DNA of 61,248 bases, counting the filler, from a candidate division TA06 bacterium SM23_40 (GTDB lineage Bacteria; LJUI01; SM1-40): the NCBI GenBank assembly GCA_001303705.1. It is 4 parts of 4 records of this genome, joined end to end, with 100 filler letters (N's around TTAATTAATTAA, not from the genome) between each part and the next. Parts side by side here need not be neighbours in the genome. Positions count along the whole stretch, not along the records: positions 1 to 21,454 come from LJUI01000053.1; 3 more parts are not named here. One strand, 5' to 3'. Each line of letters begins with the position of its first letter. Within the stretch, counting starts at the first letter, position 1. The position numbers and the translations under genes were made by a program. Of this stretch, positions 944-22,312 are shown in pieces. Under the pieces are notes generated by a model that saw nothing but the letters and a program-made list of their open reading frames with translations, was not told the DNA's origin and searched no databases.

Positions 944-1074
944 GATCGATACTCTCTCCTCATCCCATCGAGCCCCGGGACCCTCCATCCCCCTGGCAGA
1001 TCTCGGCCGGCGTCTCGCTCCTTGCGCGGAGAGCCAAATCCATCTCCAGACGGACAGATTCTCTGCTCGTGCGC

Positions 1075-2769
1075 TTACCCAACATATCCAAGCCCCCTCA
1101 GCATCTCCTCAACCTTATCTTCCTCCTGATCCGAGTAGGAGAAGCGCCTCTCGGCTCCCGTCCCAGGAATATCCTGTGGCTCCTCGGAGGCGGGCGGATG
1201 GTCACGCAGGTACTCGTCCCTGATACCTCCCTCCAGAATGCGACCGTCCATGTCGCCGGGGACCGGCAGACCCATCAGATAGAGGATAGTGGGCGCTATA
1301 TCAACGATCTTTGCCCCCTGGAGCCGTCTGTTCTGTCCGGTCGCCGGCCCGGCCATGATGATCATCCCGTTCAACCGGTGTGTCGCGCAATGGTGATAGG
1401 CCGGCTTCTGGAGCACAGGTCCGACCGTAGGATCGTTGCGCGGAACATACCGCAGTCCTTTCAGGAGGTAGATGATATCGGGCGCACCTTCGACATATGG
1501 ACCGGCGTACAACTCCTCCCGCCGCTTGACCAGCTCCACGATGGGCGTCCCGTCGGAACCATTCGTGAGGCAGGCGAGCCGCTCGATGATCGAGTCACGA
1601 AGCCGCTCATACTCTTCGCCGGGCGTGACGATCCCCTCTCGCTCCCTCCCCGCGACATTGAGAACGATACTCCCGCCGCAGCCACCGATAAGCGGGGCAT
1701 AGGCCACAGTGCGGCCCCAATCTATATGCGCGAGGCGATCCCGTCTGCGACGCGGAAGACGGGGATGCATGCGTCTCATCGATCCCGGGACGAGGCGCCC
1801 GATACGCCCGAGCCGGCGGCCGCGCAGTATATCCTCCAGCGTCTTCGTTGTCCGGCGGACCTGGTAGCGCGGAAGACGGCCCACCCGCCGCAGCCGGAGC
1901 AACCCCTCTTTCATCAGCCACCTGTTGCAGAAGAAGTAGTGGCTGAACGGACCCGCCCCATGATCAGACATGACGACGACGGAGACATCCTCTCCCACCT
2001 TCTCCAATATCTTCTCTATGGCTCGGTCCACAGCTCGGTACATCTGTGGTATGACAGAATCGTACTTAGCAGACTCCTCGGGGTTGAGTCGACGGTATTC
2101 CTCGTTCCAGAATCTCCACGCGGTGTGCTGCACGATGTCTGTGGCACGAAAGACAACGGCCGCCAGATCCCAATCATGGTTCGTGAGGAGATATATCGCG
2201 GTCTCCATCTTTCTCCTCACATTACCGAACATGTGCTCGAGGCACTCGATCGGCCCAAGTTTGCCGCGCACATAGGAGGGCACGATCTGGTCCTCGAACG
2301 GATACTGACCGACATGGGCCACGATCTCTGCGTGAAGTTCGGGCGGCATCGTGATGATGGTCTCTCTGGACGGGGCGAGAAAGGTAGCGATCATCAGGCC
2401 ATTGATCCGCCAGGGAGGGAAGGTCATCGGGACATCGATGACGATGGAGCGACGGTCCTTTGAACCGGCGATATCCCAGAGAGTTGGGGCACTGATCGAT
2501 CGCGACGTCGCGACAGGCCAATCGTACGTCTCCGGCTCGCGCACACGAAAGCCATACACGCCGTGCTTCCCTGGACTCTTGCCGGTCATGAACGAGGTCC
2601 AGGCAGGCCCCGTCATCGGAGGAATGGTCGATTCGAGCTCGCCCCACGCACCTTGCTCCATGAGGCGGGCCAGCGTAGGGACGAGGCCTTGCTCGATCAG
2701 CGGCCCGATGACATCGAATGTGCCGCCATCGAGTCCGAAGATGACCAATCTATTCCTCTGCCTACTCAC
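1075..2769 (-). CDS. AlkP-superfamily (type I phosphodiesterase/nucleotide pyrophosphatase-like) protein, paralogue 1, with C-terminal LGY tail
   Basis: Motifs IFGLDGGT, STIPPMTGPAWTSFMTGKSPGKHG, DIVQH, SDHG, THRLNG. Ends EEDKVEEMLRGLGYVG. No signal peptide. Confidence 0.9.
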   Translation of the reverse strand: MSRQRNRLVIFGLDGGTFDVIGPLIEQGLVPTLARLMEQGAWGELESTIPPMTGPAWTSFMTGKSPGKHGVYGFRVREPETYDWPVATSRSISAPTLWDIAGSKDRRSIVIDVPMTFPPWRINGLMIATFLAPSRETIITMPPELHAEIVAHVGQYPFEDQIVPSYVRGKLGPIECLEHMFGNVRRKMETAIYLLTNHDWDLAAVVFRATDIVQHTAWRFWNEEYRRLNPEESAKYDSVIPQMYRAVDRAIEKILEKVGEDVSVVVMSDHGAGPFSHYFFCNRWLMKEGLLRLRRVGRLPRYQVRRTTKTLEDILRGRRLGRIGRLVPGSMRRMHPRLPRRRRDRLAHIDWGRTVAYAPLIGGCGGSIVLNVAGREREGIVTPGEEYERLRDSIIERLACLTNGSDGTPIVELVKRREELYAGPYVEGAPDIIYLLKGLRYVPRNDPTVGPVLQKPAYHHCATHRLNGMIIMAGPATGQNRRLQGAKIVDIAPTILYLMGLPVPGDMDGRILEGGIRDEYLRDHPPASEEPQDIPGTGAERRFSYSDQEEDKVEEMLRGLGYVG

Positions 2770-2870: not shown

Positions 2871-4556
2871 CTAGCCGAGATATCCCAATTCGCCGAGGTC
2901 CCTCTTGATGCGCCGACGTTCCTCTTGTGAGAAGACCTCCCGGGCGGTATCTGCCTCACCTGCCGGCTCTTCTTTTGCCACAGACCACCGTTCCGGATGC
3001 CGGGCCGCATACTCCTCGCGCAGCGCCCCGGTCAGTACGGCCCCGTCCATGTCGGAGGGGATCTCCATTTCCAGTAAATGCAGGACCGTCGGTGCCAGGT
3101 CCACGATCTGCGCTTCCGCCAACTCAAATCCACTTCTGATGGCAGGCCCCCTCATCATGAGGACGCCTTCCATACGATGCATGCCCAGTCGCTCCTCATC
3201 CGGCTCAGTGATCAGCGCGCGGGCATACGGTAGTACCTGACAGCGGAACTTATGATCGGTCGTCAAGAACGTGATATCCGGAGCCTTGTGTGCCAGGGGC
3301 CCGGTATAGATATCCTCCGGCACCCAGACCTGAGAGATCACCGGCTCGCCTGTTGCAGGATCCCGCAGGGAGCGCAGGCCCTCAATGATCTCCCGGCGCA
3401 GCCTCTCACGCTCTTCTCGTCCCACCTGCTTTCCCCGCTTTCCGAGACTCGGAGTGTTGATGGTGATCTTTATGGGACTCGACACAACGTTCGCAAACGC
3501 CCGGGTGCGGGACCAGTTGACAATCTGTGTCCGATCGCGGCGCAATCGGGGAAAGGGTAGCCTGACGTCACCCAGACGTGCGGGGAGCGCGCGGCCCACC
3601 GCCGCCAGGCCGAGCTTGTCCAGCGCCGCCCGGATCGCGGCCCACCTCACATGAAGCCGGAGAGTCGCAACTGACGGCCATGGCTTCAGTGCGAGGAACC
3701 CTTCATTGTGCAGCCACTTGTTGACATGGAAGCACCGCTTGACCGGGCCAGCACCGTGATCGGACATGATCACCGCCGTTGTACCATCGCCGACGGCGTC
3801 GAGCAATTCGGCAACAACTCCATCGAGAACCTCATAGTACTGATCGATCATCTTGTGGTACATCGCCGTCTCATGCGGGCGTTCGCGCCTATACTCCTCA
3901 TCCGTGTACCGAAAGCCATAGTGCTGAATGACGTCCGGCCCGCGAAACACCACCGCGAAGAAGTCGACGTCATACTTCCTCAGCAGATAGAGAGCTGCCT
4001 GCTTCCGCTTCTCTGTATGGTCGCAGACGCTCCTCAGACCGCCGAGAATGTCGCCGGCGGCGAACGATCCAACGAGCTCCCGCTCCATTGGATAAGAACC
4101 GATCTCCTTGAGCAGATCGGTCTGAAGTGTGGCAGGATAGGTGAATTCGCTCTCCTGCGACGGCGTGAACATTCCCGCAACCATGTACCCGTTGACAGGG
4201 GTGGGCGGGAATGTCATCGGGATATCGATCACCCCGACACGCATACCGCGCTCGCCGATCAGGTCCCAGAGCGTCTTCCCCTGCACCCAGGTAGCATTCG
4301 GCCACAACACTTCCTTGTCGGCGCCAACACAGATCATATCGAATACGCCGTGTTTGCCCGGGTTCTTCCCGGTCATGAACGAGGCCCAGGCAGGCGGCGT
4401 CACTGGCGGCACGGTCGACTGGAGTACTCCCCATGTCCCCTCTTCCATGAACCGACGGAATGTCGGCAGTCGCCCTGCCTCTGCCAAAGGGCGTATAATG
4501 TCGAGGGTGGCTCCGTCCAGACCTATGACCAGTACCTTAACGTTCCTCCCGGCCAC
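2871..4556 (-). CDS. AlkP-superfamily protein, paralogue 2, with LGY tail
   Basis: VIGLDGAT, STVPPVTPPAWASFMTGKNPGKHG, SDHG. Ends EERRRIKRDLGELGYLG. Start placed at GTG 4556 behind GAGGAG (ORF track extends to 4622). Confidence 0.88.
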   Translation of the reverse strand: MAGRNVKVLVIGLDGATLDIIRPLAEAGRLPTFRRFMEEGTWGVLQSTVPPVTPPAWASFMTGKNPGKHGVFDMICVGADKEVLWPNATWVQGKTLWDLIGERGMRVGVIDIPMTFPPTPVNGYMVAGMFTPSQESEFTYPATLQTDLLKEIGSYPMERELVGSFAAGDILGGLRSVCDHTEKRKQAALYLLRKYDVDFFAVVFRGPDVIQHYGFRYTDEEYRRERPHETAMYHKMIDQYYEVLDGVVAELLDAVGDGTTAVIMSDHGAGPVKRCFHVNKWLHNEGFLALKPWPSVATLRLHVRWAAIRAALDKLGLAAVGRALPARLGDVRLPFPRLRRDRTQIVNWSRTRAFANVVSSPIKITINTPSLGKRGKQVGREERERLRREIIEGLRSLRDPATGEPVISQVWVPEDIYTGPLAHKAPDITFLTTDHKFRCQVLPYARALITEPDEERLGMHRMEGVLMMRGPAIRSGFELAEAQIVDLAPTVLHLLEMEIPSDMDGAVLTGALREEYAARHPERWSVAKEEPAGEADTAREVFSQEERRRIKRDLGELGYLG

Positions 4557-4603
4557 GCTCTCGGTCTCCTCTCCCTGAAGGGAGCCATCAACGAGATCCA
4601 GAT

Positions 4604-6301
4604 CTATCCCAGATATCCCCACCCACGGAGTCGCTCGCGGACCTCCTCAGCCTCTTCCTCGCTCACCGCCTCCCGTTCCTCGCGCGCCTCAGTGGCTGCC
4701 ACACCTCGCTCCTCGTACACCACCGGATGGTGCGCCCGATACGACGGGGTCATGGCCTCCTCGAGCGGTCGTCCCTCCATCGCCTCGGGGACGGGAACGC
4801 CCAGGAGATGGAGTACTGTCGGCGCCACGTCCACAATCTTGGCTCCGTCCAGCCGTGCACCGGCCTCGACCCCCTCACCCATCACAAGCAATATCCCCTC
4901 CTCGCGGTGCGATCCCGAGTGCCACCGCTCCGTCTCGATGAGATGACGGGGATAGATGTAATCAGTCAGCTTGCAGCCATAATCTTCTGCGCGCACGATC
5001 AGATCCGGTGAAGACCCGCTCTGCTCGCCCCTGAACACTTCTTCCTTTCGGTACACACGATCTACGACCTGCTCACCCGTCTGCGGATCCCGCAGCGCGA
5101 GCAGACCGCGTTCGATCTCCTCGCAGACTTTGCGGTACTCTCCGTCCGGTTCGACAATGCCTTCCGGCTCACGACCGCGCACATTGACGTAGATGGCTTG
5201 CTCCGCGAGGCTTCCCCCATAGGCGCGCGTCCGTGCCCAGTCTATGACCTTGTACGGATTGATCGCTTTGCGCGGATCCAGATCCTTCCAATTCCCACCT
5301 CGTAGCCCGGGGAAAAGCCGCCGTGTCGTGAAGTACCGCACCCCCATCTTCGACAGCAACTTGTAGAGGATTGCGGGGAGCCGGATCCGCCACAGAGGAT
5401 AGGAAATCGGACGCAGGCGCAACAGGCCCTGTTGTCGCAGCCAGACGTTCATATGGAACATCTTGGTGTTGGGCCCTGCCCCGTGATCAGAAAGGACGAC
5501 GACAGTCGTCCCCTCTCCTGCGCGATCGATGATCTCCCCGAGTGCGGTATCGAGGAATTCGTAGAATCCGTGTATCACGCCGCCGTACCGCTCTGCGAGC
5601 ACTGAATCAAAGGCCGGGTGCGCCCGATCCATGTACTTCCAGAAGAAGTGCTGAACGCGATCTAGAGAAATGAAGACAGCAGTAAGGAGATCCCATTCGT
5701 AGCGATCCATCAGGTAGAGCGTAGCCTGCTTCCTCTGCTCCTCAACACGATAGAACTTCTCGATCAATTCCTCTTTCTCATCCGTGAAGAAGAAGGGTAG
5801 CGTATCGACCTCGGGAAGATAGCTTCCAAGCCGACCGCGCACTTCGTCGAGGAGCCCCGGCGGATGGGTGGCGGTCTCGCGCCTCAGCCCTGCGGCGCCC
5901 ATGAAGCCGGGAAGGACGAACCCATCGATCACTTCGGGCGGATAGGTGAAGGGAACGTTGATCGCTCCCACGCGCCTCCCATTGCGGCTGGCCACTCCAA
6001 ACAGGCTCTCCCCCCGCATGGTGAGACGGCTCGTCACCTCCCGCCGGAATCTGCCGCGCAGCGGGCCGAAAAACCCGAAGATCCCGTGGCTTCCCGGGTT
6101 CTTCCCGGTGAGAAACGATGCCCACGCAGGTGCCGAGAAGGGGGGTACTGTCGAGCGCAGTCTCCCCCACGCCCCCCCTTCCATCATGCGTGCGAAGGTC
6201 GGCAGCTTGCTATCCGCTACGAGTGGTTCTATGACGTCGAAGGTGGCTGAGTCGAATCCAATGACGAGCACCTTCCTGCCAGTTCGCCCCTGCTCCGCCA
6301 A
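4604..6301 (-). CDS. AlkP-superfamily protein, paralogue 3, with WGY tail
   Basis: VIGFDSAT, STVPPFSAPAWASFLTGKNPGSHG, DRVQH, SDHG. Ends EEEAEEVRERLRGWGYLG. Start placed at TTG 6301 behind a purine-rich RBS. Confidence 0.88.
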   Translation of the reverse strand: MAEQGRTGRKVLVIGFDSATFDVIEPLVADSKLPTFARMMEGGAWGRLRSTVPPFSAPAWASFLTGKNPGSHGIFGFFGPLRGRFRREVTSRLTMRGESLFGVASRNGRRVGAINVPFTYPPEVIDGFVLPGFMGAAGLRRETATHPPGLLDEVRGRLGSYLPEVDTLPFFFTDEKEELIEKFYRVEEQRKQATLYLMDRYEWDLLTAVFISLDRVQHFFWKYMDRAHPAFDSVLAERYGGVIHGFYEFLDTALGEIIDRAGEGTTVVVLSDHGAGPNTKMFHMNVWLRQQGLLRLRPISYPLWRIRLPAILYKLLSKMGVRYFTTRRLFPGLRGGNWKDLDPRKAINPYKVIDWARTRAYGGSLAEQAIYVNVRGREPEGIVEPDGEYRKVCEEIERGLLALRDPQTGEQVVDRVYRKEEVFRGEQSGSSPDLIVRAEDYGCKLTDYIYPRHLIETERWHSGSHREEGILLVMGEGVEAGARLDGAKIVDVAPTVLHLLGVPVPEAMEGRPLEEAMTPSYRAHHPVVYEERGVAATEAREEREAVSEEEAEEVRERLRGWGYLG

Positions 6302-6346
6302 GATTTCCTTTCTCCTCCATGCCAGCACGCCGAGCTCGGGGCTCAC

Positions 6347-7969
6347 CTAATCGAGATACCCCAGGCCTGCAAGCTGTCTCATTATGGCTTCCTCTTCGTC
6401 CTTCCTATATCCTCTCTCCTCGAGGTCGATCCTCGCAATCTCGGCCTCCGTCACCTTCACTTCCCTGCTTCTGAGCAGCTCCTCATCGAGCCCCTCTATC
6501 AGGACGCGACCGTCCATAGCGGCCGGGACCGGCAGTCCGAGGAGGTAGAGGAGCGTCGGAGCGATGTCGACCAGAGATGCCTTCTCGAATCGAGCGCCGG
6601 ACGCTGCGTGCGGCCCGGCAGCGATCAATATGCCGTCCATCCGGTGTGTTCCGCCCGTCTGGGTGGTGAAGAGCTCCCGGCACGTCGGCCTATTGTGCTG
6701 TTGATACCTCATCTCCTTCATCTGAAATAGTATATCAGGGGCCAGCTCCGCGAATTCGCCACAATAGACCTCCTCTCGGAACGAGATCGTATCGACCACA
6801 CACTCGCCAGTCTCTAGATCGACCAGCCGTTCGAGCTCGCTCGCGATGCGGCGGCGCAGGTCCCCGTACTCACCACCCCCACTCGCCGCCCCTGCCCCGC
6901 CGTCACGCACATTGATATAGATGCCGAAGTTCCCCGCAAAGGCATCGCTCTTCTCCCAGTCGATCCCGTTCCCGCCCGTGCGAAGCATCGGCAACCGGAC
7001 GACGATCCCCTGGAACCGGTCCGGAAGTCTGGCCGCCAGCCCGCCGAACCCGCATCGCGAAAGAATCCTGCCCACCGTCGCCCGCCTTACCGCCAGCCCC
7101 GCTCCAATCCCCGGCCAGCGGGGCTTCGCATAGCAGAGAAATCCGTGCTCGTTGAGCCAACGGGTGGTGCAGAAGGCTTTGTCGAGATCCCCGAAGCCAT
7201 GATCTGACATCACGAGGACGGTTGTCTCGTCACCGACCTTTGCCATCAATTCGCCAATCCACCGATCGACTGTACGATATGCCTCGGGTATCGCCTCCTC
7301 GAGAGCGCCGCCATGTCGGTAGTGACTCCAACACAGGTGCTGAATCCGGTCGGTCAGTCCGTACACCACGACGAACAGATCCCATTCATCTCGATCGATG
7401 AGATAGGTTGCCGCACGGTGTCGCTGCTCTTCGATCCCCCGGTACCTCCGCGTCCACTCGTTCAGATCGACAGGTACTCCCCGCGGCGGATTCTGCTCCA
7501 GCGGATACTCGCCGAGCGCATTCTCTAACGCAGAGAGAAGTGCGGGCGGATGGACGAAAGCATCGTCCTTTGTCGGCGCGGGCACGCCGGAGATCATGCA
7601 TCCTCGGATCGGCCAACAGGGATAGGTGACCGGCACGTTGATGGCCACAGTGCGCCCGCCGGCCCGGTCGACGATCTCCCAGATAGTAGGCGACTTGATG
7701 GAACGAGATGTTATGAGATGGCGCACTCCACGCCTGATAGCATCGGGAGAGAGCTCGGAGAAGTTGAATATCCCATGCTTCCCCGGATTGACGCCAGTCA
7801 TGAACGACACCCACGCCGGCGCGGTGACCGGGGGAATTGACGATTCGAGGGTACCACGTGCCCCCCGATCGAGCACCCGTGCCATGTTGGGAAGCTCGCC
7901 CCGCGCGACCATCGGATCGATCACATCGAATGTCGCGCCATCGAGCCCGATCACAACTGCCCGATCCAC
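6347..7969 (-). CDS. AlkP-superfamily protein, paralogue 4, with LGY tail
   Basis: VIGLDGAT, SSIPPVTAPAWVSFMTGVNPGKHG, DRIQH, SDHG. Ends DEEEAIMRQLAGLGYLD. Start placed at GTG 7969 behind GGAGGTGA. Confidence 0.88.
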   Translation of the reverse strand: MDRAVVIGLDGATFDVIDPMVARGELPNMARVLDRGARGTLESSIPPVTAPAWVSFMTGVNPGKHGIFNFSELSPDAIRRGVRHLITSRSIKSPTIWEIVDRAGGRTVAINVPVTYPCWPIRGCMISGVPAPTKDDAFVHPPALLSALENALGEYPLEQNPPRGVPVDLNEWTRRYRGIEEQRHRAATYLIDRDEWDLFVVVYGLTDRIQHLCWSHYRHGGALEEAIPEAYRTVDRWIGELMAKVGDETTVLVMSDHGFGDLDKAFCTTRWLNEHGFLCYAKPRWPGIGAGLAVRRATVGRILSRCGFGGLAARLPDRFQGIVVRLPMLRTGGNGIDWEKSDAFAGNFGIYINVRDGGAGAASGGGEYGDLRRRIASELERLVDLETGECVVDTISFREEVYCGEFAELAPDILFQMKEMRYQQHNRPTCRELFTTQTGGTHRMDGILIAAGPHAASGARFEKASLVDIAPTLLYLLGLPVPAAMDGRVLIEGLDEELLRSREVKVTEAEIARIDLEERGYRKDEEEAIMRQLAGLGYLD

Positions 7970-8068
7970 CGTTCTCGTCACCTCCCACAGGCCGTCGACA
8001 CCGTGGATTCTCGTTGCCGGAAGAGGCAACGCACAGATAGAAGTCTTTTATACAGCATAGAGGAATTC

Positions 8069-9424
8069 TCAGTCGACGAGGGACCGCCCGTCCACATCTG
8101 ACGGAATGGGCACCCTGAGCAGGGAAAGCACGGTCGGCATCACATCGACGATCGAGAACTCGTCACGCGTGATCTCTTCTCCTCTGATGAATAGAAACGC
8201 ATCCTCAAAGGTGTGCATCCCGACAAGCTCTCCCTTATGCGTCAGCTCGGGCCTGTTCAGCGCTCCCTTCAGATCGTAGCCCCTCCGGGGTACGGCAATC
8301 AGATCCGGCGCCGCGTCGAATGAATCACCGAAATATATCTCCTCTCTCTTCACAACCTTCTCGATCATCTGTTCGCCACTGTCGGGATCAGTCAGCTCGG
8401 CGAGTCCCTCGGCGAGCTCGGCCCGCACCCTTTCGTACTCATCCCCCGGTGCCACGCTCCCCTTCGGCTCCCTCCCACGAAGATTCACATAGATGCGACC
8501 CGGGTCGAGGCTGAACGCCCGGGACCGCTCGTCGATCTCCTTGATGGACTGCTCGTTCTGATTATCGAAGACGAGCCATCCCCCATCGACAAGCCAATGG
8601 TTGATGTACACTTCCTTCTTCAGGGTGCAGAATCCATGGTCCGAGAGCACTGCCAACGTTGTTCTCCCATCGAGTCGGGAGACCAGGCCCGCGATCATCT
8701 CATCGATCTTCCGGTAGTAATCAAGAAATGCGGCAGCGTACGGCCCTTCACCAAGCTCCATCTGTTCCCAGAGAAAGTGATTGATCCTGTCCGTGCCCAT
8801 GAAGTGGGTCATGAAGAAGTCCCACTCTTCGTGTTCCATGAGGTAGAACATCGTCGCCGCCCGTCTCGACAAGACTTCGTTGAGGTCATCCAGAAACGGC
8901 GTCTTGTCCTTCTCCCTTCCCTTCCATGGATCGACATCGATGCGATATCCGAGTTCCGAGAGTTTCCGCGCGAGCTGCCGAGGATACGTTGCCTTGTTGA
9001 GGTCCGGGGACAGAAAGCAGCCGACGAGGAAGCCGTTAACCTCGCGAGGCGGATACGTCACGGGAACGTTCATCACACCCACGCGTCTGCCGGTCCGCCC
9101 GATCACCTCCCACAGCGTGTCGCTCTTCATATCGGTGGAGAGCGGTATGTAGGTATCATAGGTTCGAGGCCGCCGATCCTGGAATCCGTATATGTTGTGT
9201 TTCCCCGGATTCTTCCCTGTCATGAACGACGACCACGCCACCGAGGAAACGGTAGGCAGCACGGAGTTCATCCGCTTCCACGAACCATCCCCGAACAGGC
9301 GACCGAGATGGGAGAAGACACTCTCTCCGATCATCCTGTTGACAAACGAATAGGGCACCCCATCGAGGCCCACAACCACCACACGTCTCTTTCCTCCTCT
9401 CCGCAATCCTCCCAGAAATCGCAT
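8069..9424 (-). CDS. AlkP-superfamily protein, paralogue 5 (short form, no LGY tail)
   Basis: VVGLDGVP, SVLPTVSSVAWSSFMTGKNPGKHN, DRINH, SDHG. Ends DGRSLVD. Confidence 0.9.
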   Translation of the reverse strand: MRFLGGLRRGGKRRVVVVGLDGVPYSFVNRMIGESVFSHLGRLFGDGSWKRMNSVLPTVSSVAWSSFMTGKNPGKHNIYGFQDRRPRTYDTYIPLSTDMKSDTLWEVIGRTGRRVGVMNVPVTYPPREVNGFLVGCFLSPDLNKATYPRQLARKLSELGYRIDVDPWKGREKDKTPFLDDLNEVLSRRAATMFYLMEHEEWDFFMTHFMGTDRINHFLWEQMELGEGPYAAAFLDYYRKIDEMIAGLVSRLDGRTTLAVLSDHGFCTLKKEVYINHWLVDGGWLVFDNQNEQSIKEIDERSRAFSLDPGRIYVNLRGREPKGSVAPGDEYERVRAELAEGLAELTDPDSGEQMIEKVVKREEIYFGDSFDAAPDLIAVPRRGYDLKGALNRPELTHKGELVGMHTFEDAFLFIRGEEITRDEFSIVDVMPTVLSLLRVPIPSDVDGRSLVD

Positions 9425-9513
9425 AACTCACTTTCTCCTCAAGCCCTGAGTGCGATCAAGCGAGCTGCCAACGAGAACGGCCACCCGCGGCCCGCGGATA
9501 GCCAGAAAGAGAC

Positions 9514-10131
9514 CTAGAGATACCCGAGGTTTGTCAATCGTTCCTTGACTTTCTCCTCCTCCTCCTTGGTATAGACTCCCTCTCCGCCTTCGGCCGTCTC
9601 CCCCTCCCCGAGGTACCCGAGCTCACGCAGCTTAGCCATCACCTTCTGCGCACTCTCCCCGGGAGCCTCTTTGTCAGTATCGACGACTACCTCCGGGGCG
9701 AGCGGCTCTTCATATGGATCGTCTATCCCTGTGAATCCCTGTATCTCACCGGCGCGGGCCTTCTTGTACATGCCCTTCACATCCCTCTGCTCGCATACCT
9801 CCACCGGGCAGCGGACATACACCTCCACGAAATTACCGATCTCCATACGCGCGTGGTCGCGGATCGCCCGATAGGGTGAGATCGCAGCGGCGATGGTGGC
9901 AGCGCCGTTTCGGGTGAGGAGCTTGCAGACAAACGCGATCCGCTTGATGTTCGTATCCCGGTCCTCTTTGCTGAAGCCCAGTCCCTTGCTCAGGTTTGTG
10001 CGCACCACGTCGCCATCCAACACTTCGACGTTTCGACCGGTCGCTCGGATCTCTTTCTCCACGATCTGCGAGACGGTTGTCTTGCCCGAACACGGCAACC
10101 CGGTGAACCAGACAGTGAACCCCTTGGCCAT
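9514..10131 (-). CDS. cysC: Adenylyl-sulfate (APS) kinase with an extra C-terminal LGY tail
   Basis: [13 protein letters not shown]-loop, [52 protein letters not shown]. Confidence 0.97.
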
Positions 10132-10153: not shown

Positions 10154-11542
10154 TCAACTGATGGCCTTCCCTTCCATATCGCCGGGGATATCGATACCTA
10201 ACAGACTGAGGACTGTCGGCCCGCAATCTACGATGTGCAACCCCTCGAGCCTGCCCTTCGGCGCTCCATCCGGATTGTGCATGATGAAGATGCCGTACTC
10301 CGCGTGGTTCGCGTCGTCCGGGCCGGTATCGTTCTCAAAGGTATGCACGGTATCGAGGCCGATGCTCCCCACCGACCGCCAATCGAGATCGCCGAAGTAG
10401 ACGATGAGATCTGGAGGAATCCCCTTCACCTCTGAATAGATCTCCTGAGGCCTGAAGACGCGCGTTCCGATATTGCGCCCCTCGGGATCTTCGATCGCCT
10501 CCAACTTCTCCTTCAGCTCATCCCGCACCTTCTCGTAGTCCTGAGGAGCAATGATGCCGGCCGGCTCCCGATTCTTCACGTTCAGGAACAGCCGGCCGTA
10601 GTAACCTCCATCCCCCCAAGCCATGGTATTCGCCCAGTCTATATCGTCCGGCTCGAGCCGTCGGACCCGGTCCGGCCTCTTCTTCAGGCGGAGATAGCCC
10701 TCCCGGATCAGCCACTCATTGAAACAGATGCCGCCATCCATCTTCTTGGCGCCATGATCGGATACGACCATTACCGCGGTGCGATCATCGACGAGATCGA
10801 GTGTCTTGCCGACCTCGTCGTCCACATACCGGTAGTAGTCGAGGATGGCAGACTCATAGCGTGACCCTCGTTGGTACTTCGGATGCTCTGTGTCGAAGTA
10901 CTTCCAGAATCCATGGTGTATCCTGTCGATTCCCATGTCGACCACCATGAAGAAGTCCCATGGCTTCTTTCGCATAAGGTATCTCGTCAACTCGAACCGG
11001 TTGGCTGTCATCTCGTAGATCTGCTTCAGCAGGGAATCTTTGTCGTCTGTGCGGAAGTTGTCTACGTCGAGGATATATCCGCCAATTGCTTCATTGATCT
11101 CCTGCTTCAGGCTTGCCGGATAGGTGTACTCGCTGTCAGTACTCGGCGTGAGGAAGCACGTCACCAGGTACCCATTGACTGGTTTGGGCGGATAGGTCTG
11201 AGGCACACCCAGGACCACCACGTCCCTGCCGTGACGCGACAGGATATCCCAGACTGCATCCTCCCTCACCAGCGTCGAATTGGCGAAAACAAGCTTGCTG
11301 TATGAGTAGTCGCCCCGGTTTCGGAAGCCATAGAATCCAAGCCTTCCCGGATTCTTGCTCGTCATCATTGACGTCCACGCAGGGACAGTGATCGGCGGCA
11401 CGATCGTCTGGAGTGGTCCGTACGCCCCTCGCGCCATCACACTGCTGAGGTTCGGGAGCCGATCCCGCCACCGATCGAAGACAAGCTGCGGAGTGGCACA
11501 GTCCAGTCCGATCACAAGAACCCTCTTCGTTTCACTTCCCAT
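10154..11542 (-). CDS. AlkP-superfamily protein, paralogue 6 (short form, no LGY tail)
   Basis: [52 protein letters not shown]. Confidence 0.9.
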
Positions 11543-11575: not shown

Positions 11576-12736
11576 TCACAATTGCTGATAGTATTCGCGG
11601 AGTATCTCCACAACCTCCGGCCGCGAGAATTCCACCGGCAGATCCTCACCCTTCTTGAGGAGCTCACGAACCTTCGTGCCGCTCAGGTACACGTGATCGG
11701 ACTCTTTGTGAGGACACGTCTTGAACGAAGCCATAGTCTGACATCTCTTGCAATAGAATGCGTTGTCGAAAAAGAGCGGCCTGATACCCAATTCCTCTTC
11801 GGTGAAGTCGTCGAATATCTTCTGGGCATCGAATGGGCCGTAGTACTTCCCGACGCCCGCGTGGTCGCGGCCGACGATGAAGTGGGTGCAGCCATAGTTC
11901 TTCCGCATGATCGAATGGAAGATCGCCTCCATGGGACCGGCGTAGCGCATCGCAGCCGGCAGCACGATGAGCGCCGTCCTGTCCCCTGGATAGTAACCCT
12001 CGAGCAAGACCTCATAGCATCGCATGCGGACCTCGGCCGGGATGTCATCCTTTTTCGTCTCCCCGACAAGAGGATGAAGCAGGAGGCCGTCGCATATCTC
12101 CAGGGCACACTTCTGTATATATTCGTGAGCCCGATGGACCGGATTTCTCGTCTGGAAGCCCACAACCGTCTCCCAGCCCTTCGACCTGAACAGCTCCCTC
12201 GATTGGGCGGGATCGAGCCGATACTTCTTGAAGTCGTCGTGCCGCGGCCTCTCGAGAACAGTAACCTTACCGCCCAGCGTGATCTCTGCTGTCTCATACA
12301 GGCGAGCAACCCCGGGATGATTGGCATCGGTCGTCCCGAAGACCGCCTGCGCCTCCTCCTCTCTATTCCGTCTATAGACGTCCTCCACCTCGATAATGCC
12401 GAGGCGCTTCCCGGTGTCATCGACCAGGGCTACATCCACTCCCTCCTTAATCTTGGCCGCCTCCTCCTGCGTCGCTGAGAGCGTGATCGGAATGGTCCAG
12501 ACAGTCCCGTCGACAAGGCGGTGCTCTCTCACCACTGTACGGTAGTCCTTCTCACACATGTAGCCCTCGAGAGGGCTGAATCCTCCGATGGCGAGCAGCT
12601 CGAGATCCGAGAGTTCGGTGCCCTTCAAACGGATCGCAGGCAGCTCACCAATGCGCGCACTCAGCCCCTCCCGAGCCTCACCATCGACCAGTCGGTTGAC
12701 TAATTTCCCACCGTGTGGCGAGATCTGCTCGTGCAT
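11576..12736 (-). CDS. sat: Sulfate adenylyltransferase (ATP sulfurylase, Sat type)
   Basis: [47 protein letters not shown] 12736 behind GGAG. Confidence 0.97.
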
Positions 12737-12799
12737 CGTCTTCCTCCACACTGTCAGGAGCGGACGCTGACCCGCGGCTGCCCTACAGCAGCGCCGCAA

Positions 12800-14071
12800 T
12801 CATCCGCCGCTCGTCGTCACCGCCACCTCCTCATTACCAGTTGAAAGCCCGTACGTATCGTACACAAACAGCCTGAAGTAGTACGTCGTCGCCGGAATCA
12901 GACTCCGGACGGTATAAGACGTTGCCCCCACATCCGTGATCGAGACGATCAGCTCCCCGTTCTCCTCGGTGACGCCCGGTTCAGGCCCCATGTAGAGATT
13001 GTAGGAGGCAAAGTCCACGTCCCCCGACTCGCTCCAGAAGAGGCGAACGGTATCCGGCCCGACGACGAATGGCGGAGCGAACTCGACGCCATGCGGGGGC
13101 TCATTGATCGTTATCCTGCTCGAGGCAGCCACGGGTGTCGCCTGGTTCATGGCTACATCAGTGAAGGCCCCGACAACAAGCGCGTCGAAGACCTCATCAC
13201 CGGACTGCACAACGTAGTCTACCTCGTATACCCCATCGTCCGGCTGTACATCACCACCCGTACCATCATCCCACAGAAAGATGAAGTGCTGATCTCGGAA
13301 CGCTACCCGTGCTGTCCCGCCTGGCTCCCCTGCGACGACCGTGAAGTGTATGATATCGCCAACCAACATAACCTCTCCGCCCGTATCCTCTGTCACCTCA
13401 TCGATATGTGCGTAGGTGTCGAGGATGATACTGTCCGAGACGGGAGCGGTCGCCAGGCCGCCGCCATCGCGGAACCGGGCGTAGCTGTACTTCATTCCAT
13501 CCCCTGCCGTCAGCGTCCAATCGATAGGTCCCTCAGAAAACGGCTGCCACTCGGCTCCCTGGAAGGTCTCGTCATTGCTCAGAATCATCTCGACGATATC
13601 GGCGAAGGCAGAGAGGGTGAGGACGACGGATCGTGAGTTCGTGTACGCCTCGCCACCATTGATGGTGATGGAATAGCTACGGGGCACGGCCGATACGGGA
13701 CCAGCACGATGCCCCTCGATCCCGCGTTCATCGACCGCGCCTACGAGGTACGAGAACTCAATACCGTTGACCAGACCCTCGTCCACATACGAGAGGTCAG
13801 TCGTGGCGGCGAGCCTCCTGGGCCCCCCGGATCCAATGTGACTGCGATAGACTAGGAAATGATCGACAGCCGAGAGATCGCCGTACCGCCAGCTCAGCGT
13901 CACACTGCGATTCCCCGGCACCGCAACGAGTGAGTCCGGCGCCGGCAATGCAGAGCCACCGCCGTCTGGATCCCCGGGGTTAAGAAAGACCGGCGGTGCA
14001 TGCTGCTTGTCACAGGAGACAAGCCCTGCCAGCGCCAACAGGCCGCTGGCAAGACTCAGAGCGATCTTCAT
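12800..14071 (-). CDS. Lipoprotein with fibronectin type III domains
   Basis: Lipobox-like LAGLVSC; FN3-like segments at both ends; central DDGTGGDVQPDDGVY acidic loop. Confidence 0.75.
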   Translation of the reverse strand: MKIALSLASGLLALAGLVSCDKQHAPPVFLNPGDPDGGGSALPAPDSLVAVPGNRSVTLSWRYGDLSAVDHFLVYRSHIGSGGPRRLAATTDLSYVDEGLVNGIEFSYLVGAVDERGIEGHRAGPVSAVPRSYSITINGGEAYTNSRSVVLTLSAFADIVEMILSNDETFQGAEWQPFSEGPIDWTLTAGDGMKYSYARFRDGGGLATAPVSDSIILDTYAHIDEVTEDTGGEVMLVGDIIHFTVVAGEPGGTARVAFRDQHFIFLWDDGTGGDVQPDDGVYEVDYVVQSGDEVFDALVVGAFTDVAMNQATPVAASSRITINEPPHGVEFAPPFVVGPDTVRLFWSESGDVDFASYNLYMGPEPGVTEENGELIVSITDVGATSYTVRSLIPATTYYFRLFVYDTYGLSTGNEEVAVTTSGG

Positions 14072-15348: not shown

Positions 15349-16664
15349 CTATGCCGCGCCGTTGCCCCTGATGACGGCCGGAATCGTCCGGAGCATGATC
15401 GCCAAGTCGAGCTTTAGCGACCAGTTATCTATATACTTGAGATCGAGGTTAACCCACTCGCGGAACGGCGTATCGCTTCTCCCCCCTACCTGCCACAGAC
15501 AGGTGAGCCCCGGCCTCATCGACAGCCTCCTCTGCTGCCACCAGTCGTAATGCTCCACTTCCGCAGGGATGGGCGGACGGGGACCGACAAGGCTCATTTC
15601 ACCCTTCAGAACGTTGAACAACTGGGGCAGCTCATCAAGGCTGGTCTTCCTCAAGAACTTACCCATTCTCGTGATGCGAGGATCGTCCCGTATCTTGAAC
15701 ACCGGCCCGGTCCCCTCGTTCAGACAGAGGTCAGCTTGATGAGCAGCGCTACGAGCAGGAGAAGCGGAGAGAGCAGGATAAGAAGGAAGGACGAGACAGC
15801 GATGTCGATGAGTCTCTTGATCTGAAAGCTCAACCCGGCACGCGGCCCGCTGGAGATGTCCAACAGCGGGATGTCGTCGAGAACAGCGAACGAGTCTGTT
15901 GCCACCTTCAGGCGGAAGAGGTCTGAAGGTACACGTACCGGCACCCCACACTCCTCGCAGAGCGCCACGATCTCCTCGATACGTTTGTAGAACGATTTGA
16001 TCGGCAGGGTGATGTACACCTCGTCGATCACGTATCGGTGAAGCACATCTTCGAACTCTTTCAGATTCCCGATTATCGTGACATCATCGTTGACGAAGGG
16101 CGTCCGGTGGGGCCCTTCGGTGTCGTCGATGTAGCCGAGCAAGTGGAGCCCGTAACCGCGGTTGTCGGTGATCTTCTTGCCCAGACGCCGAGACCGGTTG
16201 TTCGTTCCTATGATGACGACATTACGGTAATTGTAGCCGAGCTTCCTGAGTGTTCGGAGACTTCCCCGTATCACCACCCGCGAGACCCCGAGAACGCTCG
16301 TATCGATCAACCAGAAAATCAACAGGAAGGTCTTGTCCAGACGCAATGGATTGAGGAGAAGTACGACCAATGCTCCCGCCGCGATGGAGATCGTTGTAAC
16401 CTTTGCGATGTCGAGATACTCTCTCCTCAGTTTGGTCGTTCTCTTCGACGAGTAGAGGTGAAAACGATCCGAGACCACCAGCCACGCCACTATGTAGACG
16501 AGAAGTAGCAGCACGCCGCTACCCACGAAAGCCCTGCGTTCGTACTGCAGCGGCGAGAACTGCCACTCCCAGATCGCCCAGCTGACGCCGAACGCGAGAC
16601 CGGCGATCAACAGATCAGCGCCCGTCAGTATTCCCGTCAGTAAGTTCGCATACCGCTTAAGCAC
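15349..16664 (-). pseudogene. Priming polyprenyl glycosylphosphotransferase (WcaJ/EpsE-type sugar transferase), frameshifted near 15720 (possible assembly artefact)
   Basis: N-part ends ...IKLTS; C-part in another frame reads [18 protein letters not shown]...LDELPQL...SLVGPRP...RPGLT. The conserved segment between them is missing. Confidence 0.85.
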
Positions 16665-17948: not shown

Positions 17949-20174
17949 TCATCGATAACCGAGGCCAGAAGGGTCCCTTCCGGTATGTCGTACATCCTCG
18001 ACCACCGCTCTCTGCTCTGATTCCGGGACTGGACGGAGATAGATCTCCCAATTCCCATCACGATTGTCCTGCCAGGCAACGAACGCCTGGCCATCGGCGA
18101 CGTCGATTGCGGGGTTGATGGAGAGCATAGTTCCCGCTGAGAGCGCCGCTTCTGTGCTCCACGTATCGCCTCCGTCCGTGCTCTCCTTCCAGAAGATCTC
18201 CCCCCTCCCTGACTCGTAGTCCGTCCAGACGATCCAGAGGTGTTGCCCGGAACAGGCCAGCCGTGGAGAGAGCGCTCCCTCCGCCGAATTCGTCAACTGC
18301 TCGGCCGTCAGCCAGGTGTCCCCACCGTCGGTGCTCTTCCGAAACAGAATCTGCCACTTCTCATCCACTTGCTCGGACCAGACCGCGTAGGCAGTCGTGT
18401 CGTCGACGGCGATGTCGGACAGCCGGGATGCCTCGGCTGACTGACTCAGATTCTCCTCATGCACCCAGGTCGCACCACCATCAGTACTCCTCGTATAGTA
18501 CGTCTCCCAATTCTCATCGACAAAACTGGTGTAAACGGCATGTATCGCGGCACCTCCGTGGCCAACGCCTCCCGGCTGAGCATGGCACAACTCCAGCACT
18601 TCCCTGGCGCGGATCATGGTATCCCATGTCACGCCGGTATCGCTCGATGCGACGAATGCCGGCTGCATCGCCTTCTGCCTCTGGGGATGTTTGGGCAGGC
18701 CTGTGACGAAGCAAGCAACGTCCCCGCCCGATGCCGCCATGGTAGGGAAGAAAGTGCCGTACTTCTCGGGCGTCAGGTGAGCCGGCTCGGACCAGTTGAG
18801 CCCGCTGTCGGTGCTCCGGCTATGCCGGAGCTCCCAATCCAACGTCGTCGGCGACCCCGGTCTGATTACGAACTCGACCCAGGCGAGATGGAGCACGCCT
18901 GCATCTACCGCAAGCAGCGGCGCTATCGCATACGCATCGACGAGCAGGGTGTCGGGCGACCACGTATTCCCCCCATCGGCGCTCTGCTTGAAGTAGATGT
19001 GAGAAAGCCCATCTCGGGTGTCAGCCCATGCAACATACAGGCTCTCTCCATCACAGGCAAAACTCGGCGACTCGGAACGCGCGCCGTCGTCGGTGAGCCG
19101 CGCCTCATCGAGCCGCCCCATGGAGGATCCGTTCCGATCGAGCGCGGGTTCTCCGATCCAGCGACCTGGAATGAACATCTCGTCCATCACGCCCCCCTGA
19201 GCATATGGCGTATCGATGCCCATGAGGGCGGCGATCGTTGTGCAGATGTCGATGTGATCATGGGCAACGGTCACCACTTCATCGGCCATGACATCCGGAC
19301 CCAGCCCGAGGAAGATGAGGCGCCGGCTGCCGATATCCGACTTCGTATGATGGTGGTAGTCGGCCTGATCGCGCCCGTGGTCGGTGGTGAGCAACATCGT
19401 CGTCTTGTCTTTGTAATACGTATCGGTATACGGCGGGATCGCCTGTATCTTCTTCCAGAACTCGAAGATCAGTGAGTCGACGTGCTCGATCGCCGCGATG
19501 TACTCGTCCCAGTTCCGGTGCCCACCCAGATCGACAGCAAAGAAATTGACCATCATGAGGTCCGGCCGCTCATCGTCCATCACCTGCTGAACCCACGCCC
19601 AGACCGTATCGTCCTCGGCATGCAGGGAGTCGGCGTCATACCGCAAGTACGCCCCAAGGCTGTCGCCATACGTGGGATAGAGGCTCCGGTCCAGATCACG
19701 CAGGACACCATTGCCGGTCAGGATCCAGCATCTGTTCCGCGGAGCGCCGGTCTGCTTCCGATAAAGCTCGAACAGGGTCGGGTACAGCGGCAGATCTGTG
19801 TCCGGCGGATTCCAATGATTGTTCGGGGCCCACCCATCGAGCCGGTTCCCATTGAGCATGAGACCATGGGATGGCGTCGACTGCGTCTTCAGGGTGTTGT
19901 ACAGATTCTTGTACATCGTCCCATGGGGAACGAGGCTATCCCAGATGACCGGGATATGCTGGTGTGTCGGGTCCCCAAAGGATTCACTCCAACGCAGGCC
20001 GTCGATCACCACGAGAAAGACGTATTCCGTCAGGAACTCGTCTGCGGCGTGCGCTCCCCGAAGGGGAACGATGAGCCACACAATACCGAATGTCAGCATC
20101 GCAATGGCTCTCCACGCGCGCCGGGCACCACTTCTCGTCACCCGTTCGACTGTCATTTGCATCTTGCTATACAC
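17949..20174 (-). CDS. Secreted AlkP-core protein fused to a BNR/Asp-box (sialidase-like) propeller
   Basis: Signal peptide ending AHA; VVIDGLR, STPSH, DLGGH, TTDHG; repeated S-x-DGG-x-TW Asp-boxes in the C-terminal half. Confidence 0.8.
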   Translation of the reverse strand: MYSKMQMTVERVTRSGARRAWRAIAMLTFGIVWLIVPLRGAHAADEFLTEYVFLVVIDGLRWSESFGDPTHQHIPVIWDSLVPHGTMYKNLYNTLKTQSTPSHGLMLNGNRLDGWAPNNHWNPPDTDLPLYPTLFELYRKQTGAPRNRCWILTGNGVLRDLDRSLYPTYGDSLGAYLRYDADSLHAEDDTVWAWVQQVMDDERPDLMMVNFFAVDLGGHRNWDEYIAAIEHVDSLIFEFWKKIQAIPPYTDTYYKDKTTMLLTTDHGRDQADYHHHTKSDIGSRRLIFLGLGPDVMADEVVTVAHDHIDICTTIAALMGIDTPYAQGGVMDEMFIPGRWIGEPALDRNGSSMGRLDEARLTDDGARSESPSFACDGESLYVAWADTRDGLSHIYFKQSADGGNTWSPDTLLVDAYAIAPLLAVDAGVLHLAWVEFVIRPGSPTTLDWELRHSRSTDSGLNWSEPAHLTPEKYGTFFPTMAASGGDVACFVTGLPKHPQRQKAMQPAFVASSDTGVTWDTMIRAREVLELCHAQPGGVGHGGAAIHAVYTSFVDENWETYYTRSTDGGATWVHEENLSQSAEASRLSDIAVDDTTAYAVWSEQVDEKWQILFRKSTDGGDTWLTAEQLTNSAEGALSPRLACSGQHLWIVWTDYESGRGEIFWKESTDGGDTWSTEAALSAGTMLSINPAIDVADGQAFVAWQDNRDGNWEIYLRPVPESEQRAVVEDVRHTGRDPSGLGYR

Positions 20175-21454: not shown

Positions 21455-21554
21455 NNNNNNNNNNNNNNNNNNNNNNNNNNNNNNNNNNNNNNNNNNNNTT
21501 AATTAATTAANNNNNNNNNNNNNNNNNNNNNNNNNNNNNNNNNNNNNNNNNNNN
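21455..21554. other. Artificial contig linker
   Basis: N-run containing TTAATTAATTAA (stops in all six frames). Confidence 0.98.
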
Positions 21555-21845: not shown

Positions 21846-22312
21846 CGCCGGGCGCCTCCTGCCTCCTCGACTCCACCGGGAGTGCGGGAAGAGACCGATC
21901 TATCCTCCCTGCTCATGGGACCGAGGTCGCGGATCCTCTCGACAAACTCGGCCATTACCGCAGCAAACCTCCCGGCCTCGGCTGCGGATATCCATTCTAA
22001 CCCCAGTCGCCTCTCGTCTATTCCCGCAGTCCGGGCCAGGCGGATTGTCATCTCCATCATCTCCTGGCAGCGCTCATTGCCGTCGACGTAGTGGCAGTCA
22101 CCTATATGACATCCCGTCACCAGAACACCATCGGCGCCCTGGCGAAATGCCTCGAAGATAAGAGAAGCGCTCACCCTGCCGGAGCACATCGTCCGGATCA
22201 GCCTGACTGACGGGGGGTACTGGAGCCGGGACACGCCCGCGCTGTCAGCCCCCGCGTATGAACACCAGTTGCAGGCGAAGACGATGATGTCAGGCTCCCA
22301 GTCCTCTCTCAT
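21842..22312 (-). CDS. mvhD: MvhD/FlpD-type [2Fe-2S] subunit
   Basis: [35 protein letters not shown]. Confidence 0.92.
   Translation of the reverse strand: MREDWEPDIIVFACNWCSYAGADSAGVSRLQYPPSVRLIRTMCSGRVSASLIFEAFRQGADGVLVTGCHIGDCHYVDGNERCQEMMEMTIRLARTAGIDERRLGLEWISAAEAGRFAAVMAEFVERIRDLGPMSREDRSVSSRTPGGVEEAGGARR

Follow-up and report, generated by a model that had tools for sequence, protein, structure and literature searches.

A C-terminal LGY tail shared by APS kinase, alkaline phosphatase-fold enzymes and small putative regulators is a candidate docking helix of split sulfate-activation systems

Introduction

In sulfur assimilation, CysE places its C-terminal tail in the active site of CysK, and CdiA-CT mimics the CysE tail (PMC5562914). 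Within the alkaline phosphatase (AP) superfamily, the C-terminal tails of choline sulfatase, phosphonate monoester hydrolases (PMHs) and dimeric arylsulfatases mediate oligomerization and reach the active-site entrance of the other protomer, and choline sulfatase without its last 12 residues shows a kcat/KM for the native substrate that is lower by 2.5e3-fold (PMC5870055). A third described system is the C-terminal "acyl shuttle" motif FXYXXF of the DltX microprotein and of MBOAT proteins, for which a covalent Tyr intermediate has been shown (PMC12148441). Here we analyze a C-terminal tail ending in Leu-Gly-Tyr (LGY), carried by the adenylylsulfate (APS) kinase CysC and by four paralogous enzymes of the alkaline phosphatase (AlkP) fold, all encoded in a 61,248-nucleotide stretch of DNA (filler included; hereafter the window) from candidate division TA06 bacterium SM23_40 (GCA_001303705.1).

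The LGY tail shares with the CysE-CysK system a setting in sulfur assimilation, a flexible C-terminal tail and the presence of the same tail on unrelated proteins, here CysC, PF01663 and PF00884 proteins and putative ribbon-helix-helix (RHH) proteins. The CysE tail anchors one protein to another enzyme, and the LGY tail may, by analogy, do likewise; the former (PMC5562914) is short and extended, with a final Ile that imitates the substrate, whereas the LGY tail is a predicted capped helix of ~16 residues. A transcription regulator, CymR, is named beside CysK in the title of a preprint (10.1101/2024.09.19.614015). The tails of Sinorhizobium meliloti choline sulfatase, RlPMH and SpAS1 are, like the LGY tail, partly helical C-terminal extensions past an AlkP-fold core, but those published tails have family-specific sequences and act between identical subunits only (PMC5870055). 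In contrast, the LGY tail is one conserved sequence found on PF01663, PF00884, APS kinase and RHH proteins; the tailed AlkPs do have a C-terminal extension beyond the catalytic core. With DltX the LGY tail has in common an invariant Tyr near the C-terminus and a motif either fused to an enzyme or borne by a separate small protein (PMC12148441), the fused forms being AlkP, CysC and sulfatase and the separate ones RHH proteins of 65-93 amino acids. The DltX context is membrane acyl transfer by MBOAT and SGNH proteins (PMC12148441), whereas the LGY motif, RLxxLGY[LI], is found on soluble enzymes and regulators. It does not match FXYXXF, and there is no MBOAT or SGNH domain among the 39 window open reading frames (ORFs) scanned (positions 1-28000 and 28000-61248).

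The gene order around the window cysC resembles an archaeal cluster that runs copG, ATP sulfurylase, DHH pApase, type I phosphodiesterase/NPP and APS kinase (PMC8268124, PMC4463584), comprising PYCH_17520-17560 in Pyrococcus yayanosii (PMC8268124) and TON_1704-1707 in Thermococcus onnurineus (PMC4463584). PMC4463584 gives TON_1705 as a pyrophosphatase with reference to Lee et al. 2009, and the P. yayanosii NPP gene (PYCH_17550) is speculated to degrade pyrophosphate (PPi) (PMC8268124). The window has sat, an AlkP gene at 10154..11542 (10154-type) and cysC in the same order, and the order is also that of 12 of the 20 Asgard regions described below; unlike the archaeal cluster, the window operon has no RHH gene, no DHH gene and five extra AlkP paralogues. 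The accessible text of the two archaeal-cluster papers (PMC8268124, PMC4463584) makes no mention of a shared tail. Our literature searches found no paper describing the LGY tail, in a searched set from which subscription journals were mostly missing and which did not cover supplements, and the tail is apparently undescribed.

We put at about even the chance that the tail is a portable protein-protein docking helix of split sulfate-activation systems (those with separate Sat, CysC and AlkP-fold enzymes), with the AlkP fold as the most likely receptor. In the operon sat-AlkP(10154)-cysC-AlkP(8069)-AlkPx4, the tail would bring CysC and the four tailed AlkPs together with the tail-less members in a single assembly. 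Docking would most likely occur on the AlkP-fold domain, near its active-site entrance, because the C-terminal tails of AP-superfamily sulfatases and PMHs behave in this way. AlkP-fold enzymes carry the tail in cis, and CysC and RHH regulators would have borrowed it, in the way that CdiA-CT imitates the CysE tail to gain access to CysK (PMC5562914). In favor of this reading we count the occurrence of one module on unrelated folds, strictly terminal, tethered and in a narrow set of carriers, its co-occurrence with AlkP genes, the small tail proteins beside tail-less AlkPs, its presence in cis on two AP-superfamily families, PF01663 and PF00884, the precedent of the AP-superfamily tails (PMC5870055) and its association with split systems. 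The analysis establishes how the module is built, how conserved it is, where it occurs and what it co-occurs with. Binding itself, as well as the identity of the partner, is something we infer; the AlkP fold is the leading receptor candidate, with Sat or CysC second.

Results

The CysC protein encoded by ORF 9514-10131 (minus strand) divides as follows, and the span 9514-9610 to which the original prediction referred corresponds to the CysC linker, tail and stop codon.

9610..10131, minus strand: APS kinase core, residues 1-174 (PF01583, NF002059, AlphaFold2 [AF2] model)
9577..9609, minus strand: Gly/Glu linker of 11 residues (175-185), predicted disordered
9517..9576, minus strand: tail of 20 residues (186-205), predicted helix 189-202
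9514-9516, minus strand: cysC stop codon, end of the ORF

The prediction that CysC carries a tail after its normal kinase end holds for this ORF. APS-kinase models match residues 3-174 end to end, with the native end reading ...KLRELGYL: PF01583 scores 216.7 bits (cutoff 21.1, 2e-64, residues 3-151) and NF002059 scores 266.2 bits (cutoff 244, residues 2-174). The core is a complete, normal APS kinase with the P-loop kinase fold, and among its listed homologues is an identical protein annotated as the adenylylsulfate kinase of candidate division TA06 bacterium SM1_40. The AF2 model, computed from an alignment of 19 sequences (mean predicted local distance difference test [pLDDT] score, 87.4), is confident over the core, which superimposes on 5cb8_B with a Z score of 29.3 and a root mean square deviation of 1.1 Å (176 residues aligned). 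Solved APS kinases align to about model residues 1-176/180, and none extends into the tail. The model drops to pLDDT <50 at residues 178-184 and then forms a helix at 189-202, with pLDDT ~85 for residues 191-200, in agreement with the predicted flexible tether. CysC linkers are generally short, with a median of 6 residues.

Other APS kinases have other C-terminal arrangements. One at L033 (10001-10738) has a different extension of ~70 residues and no LGY tail, and in the natural CysC-Sat fusion at L034 the native CysC helix leads to Sat through ~7 residues, again with no tail. The CysC tail at L060 (9998-10603) is degenerate, ending ...QLQKKSYL with Ser replacing Gly; two RHH tail proteins are encoded in the same operon. 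Two 427-amino-acid proteins (L025, 9269-10552; L026, 5918-7201) have the APS kinase at the C-terminus, and their N-terminal half resembles, by eye, a PAPS (3'-phosphoadenylylsulfate)-reductase-type domain.

The tail has the consensus x[YF][ST]xEEEEx[IV]KxRLxxLGY[LI] at the extreme C-terminus, with 0-2 variable residues after GY[LI], and 367 of 368 matches to a tail hidden Markov model (HMM) end within 4 residues of the C-terminus. Its helix of ~16-20 residues is amphipathic, with a Ser/Thr start, an acidic N-terminal half and a basic C-terminal half; the hydrophobic positions 10, 14 and 17 lie on one helix face as a single narrow stripe. The Ser/Thr start and the L-G-Y end appear to act as helix caps. 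The original prediction that Gly-Tyr is invariant was borne out, as G18 and Y19 are kept in 224 of 224 distinct tails (64 from CysC, 18 from RHH and 142 from AlkP proteins), counted with a search pattern that permitted other residues at both positions and leaving out the 8 of 150 AlkP representatives that fail the tail pattern. Two of those left out end ...LGRI and ...FGKI, with Arg or Lys at the Tyr position. In an 86-sequence AlkP alignment, the tail G and Y are among 19 invariant columns, together with residues at conserved catalytic-site motifs, and in the AlkP family alignment L557, L560, G561 and Y562 are nearly or fully invariant.

Known peptide signals and structures were also compared with the tail. 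Identity with a ClpX-type degron, a PDZ ligand or an HbYX tag of the proteasome type was rejected because the tail has 0-2 variable residues after GY[LI] and a functionally narrow set of carriers. An encapsulation peptide for a microcompartment or encapsulin was rejected as well, there being no shell genes among the 39 window ORFs. The tail profile gave nothing significant against PDB sequences (best E value, 0.036, to uL13, plus L7/L12 helices); these matches read as chance look-alikes, and hence the tail is absent from solved structures. In the ESM Atlas, a search with just the tail yielded no match of use, and CysC residues 166-205 gave nothing at an E value of ≤10 among 112 candidate longer proteins, the query being too short for the size of the database.

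The invariance of the Tyr bears on the possibility that it is chemically active, as a covalent sulfuryl or phosphoryl carrier or as a modification site that enters AlkP-fold active sites in cis or in trans. Tyrosine O-sulfation sites of the TPST or RaxST type have acidic residues within about 5 residues of the Tyr. The LGY tail differs, with its acidic run at positions 5-8, that is, 11-14 residues before Y19, and R-L-x-x-L-G-Y-[LI] at positions 13-20. We consider an active Tyr very improbable, and the Tyr-sulfate carrier of the original prediction is weakly disfavored. In its favor, Gly-Tyr is found in 224/224 tails and is never Gly-Phe, the look-alike native APS-kinase helix is non-Tyr in 31/80 cases, and the tail G and Y are as invariant as residues at the AlkP catalytic-site motifs. 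In addition, the presumed nucleophile and metal ligands are retained in all six window AlkPs, no canonical sulfotransferase turned up among the 39 window ORFs scanned, and the motif shares with that of DltX (PMC12148441) its occurrence either within the enzyme or on a small protein of its own. Against it, the same tail is borne by putative DNA-binding RHH proteins that head operons and by sulfatases that look exported or membrane-anchored, two AlkP representatives have Arg or Lys at the Tyr position, the acidic run is 11-15 residues from the Tyr rather than ~5, and L-G-Y fits a helix C-cap that is also found in the native last APS-kinase helix. Moreover, the archaeal AlkP equivalent by slot is listed as a pyrophosphatase (PMC4463584). 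A search for compensatory changes in the AlkP domains of representatives with Tyr-less tails gave one weak column (Y244), uninformative on the contact site.

The native last helix of the window APS kinase (residues 157-170) ends LGYL, and in the A. fulgidus (7yq0) and Synechocystis (5cb6) enzymes the corresponding helix shares K-[VI]-x-x-K-L-x-x-L-G-Y-L with the tail; the LGY tail thereby resembles a second copy of it. The native helix is part of the fold and has G in 66/80 and Y in 49/80 sequences, whereas the appended tail is invariant at both positions. A recent duplication of the native helix was rejected as the origin of the tail: the two share 21/36 nucleotides in the window DNA and so show no sign of such an event. 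Within the window, the tail of CysC shares 45-50% identity with those of the AlkPs, and among ten foreign CysC tails it has 55-75% identity to eight and 40-50% to two divergent ones (L003 and L014).

The four AlkP endings quoted in the original prediction were found exactly as given, in the paralogues listed here with the two tail-less enzymes that flank cysC.

10154..11542, minus strand: 10154-type AlkP-fold enzyme, tail-less, 462 amino acids (PF01663)
8069..9424, minus strand: 8069-type AlkP-fold enzyme, tail-less, 451 amino acids (PF01663)
6347..8029, minus strand: tailed AlkP paralogue, 560 amino acids (PF01663); tail 20-mer at 6353-6412
4604..6346, minus strand: tailed AlkP paralogue, 580 amino acids (PF01663); tail 20-mer at 4610-4669
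2871..4622, minus strand: tailed AlkP paralogue, 583 amino acids (PF01663); tail 20-mer at 2877-2936
1075..2769, minus strand: tailed AlkP paralogue, 564 amino acids (PF01663); tail 20-mer at 1081-1140

All six match PF01663 with 131-178 bits (cutoff 23). Among nine aligned AlkPs, D14, D206, H210, D262, H263 and H413 are invariant and T/S52 is kept (10154 numbering); we take these to be the metal ligands and the nucleophile of the superfamily, and on that assumption all six window enzymes keep both. The tailed AlkPs run ~55 residues beyond the last core motif, where the tail-less paralogues stop. That the two cysC flankers are the only tail-less paralogues is correct among the six PF01663 proteins. 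A seventh, distant AlkP-like protein of 741 amino acids (17949-20174, minus strand; weak Metalloenzyme/Sulfatase matches plus BNR repeats) ends ...SGLGYR and yet is likewise without the tail. PDB sequence searches with the tailed AlkP and 10154-type profiles returned distant matches only (PhnA, 6.5e-7 over residues 13-100; arylsulfatase, 7.2e-5) and no structural template for either family.

A first tail HMM had included the four window AlkP tails in its training, making its E values for them circular. A second HMM was therefore built from CysC tails only and compared with a background of 1651 unrelated ORF C-termini, of which the best true one scores 7.0 bits. With this model the window AlkP tails score 27.7 (1075), 23.5 (4604), 5.1 (6347) and 2.2 (2871) bits. 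By sequence, then, the 1075 and 4604 tails pass alone, and those of 6347 and 2871 can be joined to the module solely through the AlkP family alignment.

The module is widespread across bacteria and Asgard archaea: some APS kinases carry it, as do a very large AlkP family, PF00884 sulfatases and small RHH regulators at the head of sat operons. Although 116 of the 120 best CysC homologues carry it, this list is enriched for tails because it was ranked against a tailed query; in the less biased samples, tailed CysC is present in 11 of 81 sources (the window and 80 genome loci) and in 17 of 80 metagenome loci. The AlkP family of ~560 amino acids has 4843 cluster representatives at E <1e-30, and 142 of the best 150 end L..[LWM..]GY[LIVMFW] at most 3 residues from the end. 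The other eight comprise two that stop at the core, one with 10 residues past the tail, four Lys/Arg-rich variants, among them the ...LGRI and ...FGKI endings, and one protein of 862 amino acids with a different end. The CysC-only HMM scores above 7.0 bits for 124/150 of the AlkP representatives and for 120/120 RHH proteins. These small tail proteins (65-93 amino acids) have by eye a strand-helix-helix pattern and are annotated at source as CopG or RHH, with no Pfam match at E ≤1e-3 or 1e-4; one subtype is ~90% identical across the Asgard lineages listed. They also provide the stand-alone tail peptides that had been anticipated.

Nine PF00884 sulfatase-like proteins carry the tail (L093, L094, L100, L101, L108, L110, L120, L122 and L123), four of them at E ≤1.2e-3 with the tail HMM and five mainly by their RL/LRALGYI end; the six whose N-termini were read have, by eye, a signal peptide or membrane segment. 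In 10 whole genomes, 22 matches at E ≤1.1e-3 comprise 3 CysC, 10 PF01663, 6 small RHH and 2 PF00884 proteins and 1 contig-end fragment, five of them contributed by G006, a genome flagged unpublished that also supplies locus L037. One Asgard genome has a single match at this threshold, on an RHH protein. Across 121 Asgard genomes, 47 have a match at E ≤1e-5, 35 of them just one, and 57 of the 60 matches are in frames of ≤156 amino acids. Away from cysC, tailed AlkP genes lie in glycan loci in 3 of the 4 cases examined (GT4 plus ABC-2 permease; sulfatase plus GT2; Wzy_C).

The spread over carriers bears on two further accounts. One is that the tail acts in cis only, as a structural or autoregulatory helix (for stability, as a lid or as a pseudo-substrate) on its own protein, for which the nearly fixed distance from the last AlkP core motif to the tail (median, 31; interquartile range [IQR], 30-32; n = 116) and the median CysC linker of 6 residues can be cited, as well as the likeness to the native APS-kinase helix that is part of that fold. 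However, the module is on three or four unrelated folds, including RHH proteins of 65-90 amino acids with little packing surface, the window CysC linker is 11 Gly/Glu residues with pLDDT <50, and small tail proteins adjoin tail-less AlkPs, so that we regard a cis-only role as the least probable of the accounts considered. The second is that the helix self-associates, with tails bundling and tailed proteins co-assembling without a dedicated receptor. The C-terminal helix of the Mnt repressor tetramerizes an RHH dimer, and in RHH type-2 proteins the tail runs almost straight on from RHH helix B. The single narrow stripe at positions 10, 14 and 17 and the typically oligomeric folds of the carriers agree with self-association, which would also explain a tail in different compartments. 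Single-tail genomes (one Asgard genome at E ≤1e-3, and 35/47 with one match at E ≤1e-5) speak against it; with so many of them, heterotypic co-assembly cannot be the general role. Nor would one expect to find a generic tag on CysC, AlkP, sulfatase and RHH proteins alone, as in 22/22 strong matches of 10 genomes (one being an unassignable fragment). Self-association is, on balance, distinctly unlikely.

To relate the tail to its neighbors, gene content was compared between loci. An AlkP gene is present in 9 of 11 genome loci with tailed CysC versus 7 of 69 with tail-less CysC (Fisher p = 2.3e-6), and on metagenome contigs with at least 3 kb of flank in 8/11 versus 3/36 (p = 7e-5). The pairing of tail-less AlkP with tailed CysC or a stand-alone tail protein, which the original prediction had proposed as a check, was thus recovered. 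The usual order is 10154-type AlkP and then tailed CysC; the 10154-type gene usually lies between sat and cysC, and in L022 it forms a fusion with Sat. The 8069-type AlkP is directly downstream of tailed cysC in the window, L007 and L070, and in the unbiased set 4/4 of these AlkPs have a same-strand tail donor within 5 kb. The eleven 10154-type AlkPs of that set comprise five with a strong same-strand donor, two with a weaker (L014) or opposite-strand (L004) one and four with none. A tail-less AlkP is followed at once by a small tail protein in L128 and L129, and a large one by an RHH tail protein in L001, L004, L060 and contig C53 of G010. The pairing of tail and AlkP is not obligatory.

In a recurring trio (L001, 12757-13814; L004, 7292-8749; L060, 15213-16333), a large tail-less AlkP (660-793 amino acids) and an RHH-like tail protein are joined by a third protein of 272-276 amino acids with no Pfam match.

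Twenty Asgard regions were fetched around tail matches and are hence tail-selected. Twelve of the 20 have RHH-tail, Sat, (DHH-motif gene), 10154-type AlkP and CysC, and the RHH-tail gene is directly upstream of sat in 15 of the 20. In the 121 Asgard genomes, tail and 10154-type AlkP are distributed 35/12/5/69 (both/tail only/AlkP only/neither), and tail and stand-alone Sat 44/3/5/69. Nine Asgard genomes have Sat in a frame of ~580 amino acids, and 0/9 have the tail and 0/9 the 10154-type AlkP; 5/5 of these frames checked encode a Sat-CysC fusion with no tail at the end of its kinase part. With the tail in 44/49 genomes that have stand-alone Sat and in none of the nine with the long frame, it goes with split sulfate-activation systems.

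This distribution also suggests that the tail may dock on the Sat or CysC core instead of on AlkP, giving a non-covalent PAPS synthase with the presumed PPi-removing AlkP nearby, in which the RHH regulator would sense the enzyme through the same site. Besides the 44/49 stand-alone-Sat genomes against none of nine fusion genomes, the position of the RHH-tail gene directly 5' of sat (15/20), the tail-less CysC-Sat fusion L034 and the four loci with a tail but without 10154-type AlkP (L143, L144 and L146, which are clear Asgard operons of RHH tail, Sat and CysC, and L075, of the same content) are in favor of it. On the other hand, Sat in the locus is not significantly enriched with tailed CysC (8/11 versus 29/69, p = 0.10), as AlkP is (p = 2.3e-6), and docking on Sat or CysC leaves unexplained the tails of PF01663 and PF00884 proteins, some of them exported and many in glycan loci away from sat and cysC. 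We judge this account unlikely. Sat or CysC is nevertheless a real alternative receptor because of the AlkP-less operons, the tighter link to Sat in Asgard genomes and the AlkPs that lack a donor.

The 10154-type AlkP occupies the slot of the archaeal NPP gene, of which it is a putative ortholog by position and Pfam family. Given that this slot is that of a gene listed as a pyrophosphatase (PMC4463584), the channeling of PAPS to the flanking AlkPs, as originally predicted, is doubtful.

The window operon is on the minus strand with intergenic gaps of 0-101 nucleotides and runs from the fn3 gene through sat, AlkP(10154), cysC, AlkP(8069) and the four tailed AlkPs to a flippase. Its remaining features are as follows.

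12800-14071, minus strand: lipoprotein-like fn3 gene, upstream of sat
11576..12799, minus strand: sat, ATP sulfurylase (PF01747 plus PUA-like domain)
9514-10131, minus strand: cysC, APS kinase plus linker and tail, 205 amino acids (PF01583, NF002059)
9478..9504, minus strand: hairpin of 12 base pairs (8 G-C) and then a weak T run, just 3' of the cysC stop in an 89-nucleotide gap
2-988, minus strand: Wzx-type flippase, last gene of the run

A sugar transferase (Bac_transf) and other envelope genes are on the same strand, further upstream of the fn3 gene, the operon being part of a polysaccharide locus. Although this locus includes a sat-cysC module, a scan of 39 window ORFs returned no canonical sulfotransferase domain. 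The hairpin at 9478-9504 could uncouple expression of sat-AlkP-cysC from that of the five downstream AlkP genes.

The initiating sugar transferase (15349-16664, minus strand) looks split in two ORFs, with CoA_binding_3 in 15720-16664 and the C-terminal two thirds of Bac_transf in 15349-15951; the two overlap by ~230 nucleotides in different frames, suggesting a frameshift or assembly error in a WbaP-like gene. Elsewhere in the window, 22309-25103 and 32887-38538 (minus strand) hold clusters of the heterodisulfide-reductase/Mvh-delta type (FlpD, CCG, Fer4 and large Pyr_redox_2 proteins), which adjoin genes for lactate racemase and malate/lactate dehydrogenase. At 21455-21554, 38632-38731 and 54315-54414 there are paired 44-N runs, read as scaffold gaps or masking, and ORFs touching them are cut.

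Discussion

The docking-helix reading, with an AlkP-fold receptor, has to be set against a number of observations that weigh on the other side. Four tail-less 10154-type AlkPs have no nearby donor (L002, L037, L040 and L045), four loci have a tailed CysC without an AlkP (L039, L156, L157 and L159), and the RHH tail-Sat-CysC operons of L143, L144 and L146, with L075, lack the 10154-type AlkP altogether. The Asgard tail follows stand-alone Sat (44/47) more closely than it follows the 10154-type AlkP (35/47), and the synteny may reflect a shared pathway rather than physical contact. Tails are not more alike within a genome than between genomes, and both the AlkP core-tail spacing and the short CysC linker fit packing in cis as well as docking in trans. 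Finally, if the helix docked through hydrophobic contact alone, Phe should be acceptable in place of the Tyr, but it is absent from all 224 tails, so that the Tyr hydroxyl may have a role.

Another proposal is that the tail delivers an essential Tyr to the AlkP bimetal site. Sulfatases and the ~560-amino-acid family would receive it in cis, and tail-less AlkPs in trans from a CysC, RHH or microprotein partner, the Tyr serving as a gating or catalytic residue or as a covalent sulfuryl or phosphoryl shuttle. We hold this to be quite improbable; if true, the six AlkP-fold enzymes would account for the sulfate-transfer machinery that seems to be missing here, its state being read out by the RHH regulators.

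If the docking-helix reading is correct, the tail marks an undescribed way of assembling the sulfate-activation pathway: one portable peptide would link Sat, the presumed PPi-removing AlkP, CysC, the downstream AlkP-fold enzymes and even the regulator of the operon, and Sat-CysC fusions would reach part of the same end covalently. The tail is also a sequence handle on a very large uncharacterized AlkP family, found in glycan loci and beside PAPS genes; if envelope polymers undergo an unknown step of sulfate or phosphate transfer, this tailed family is the best candidate for it.

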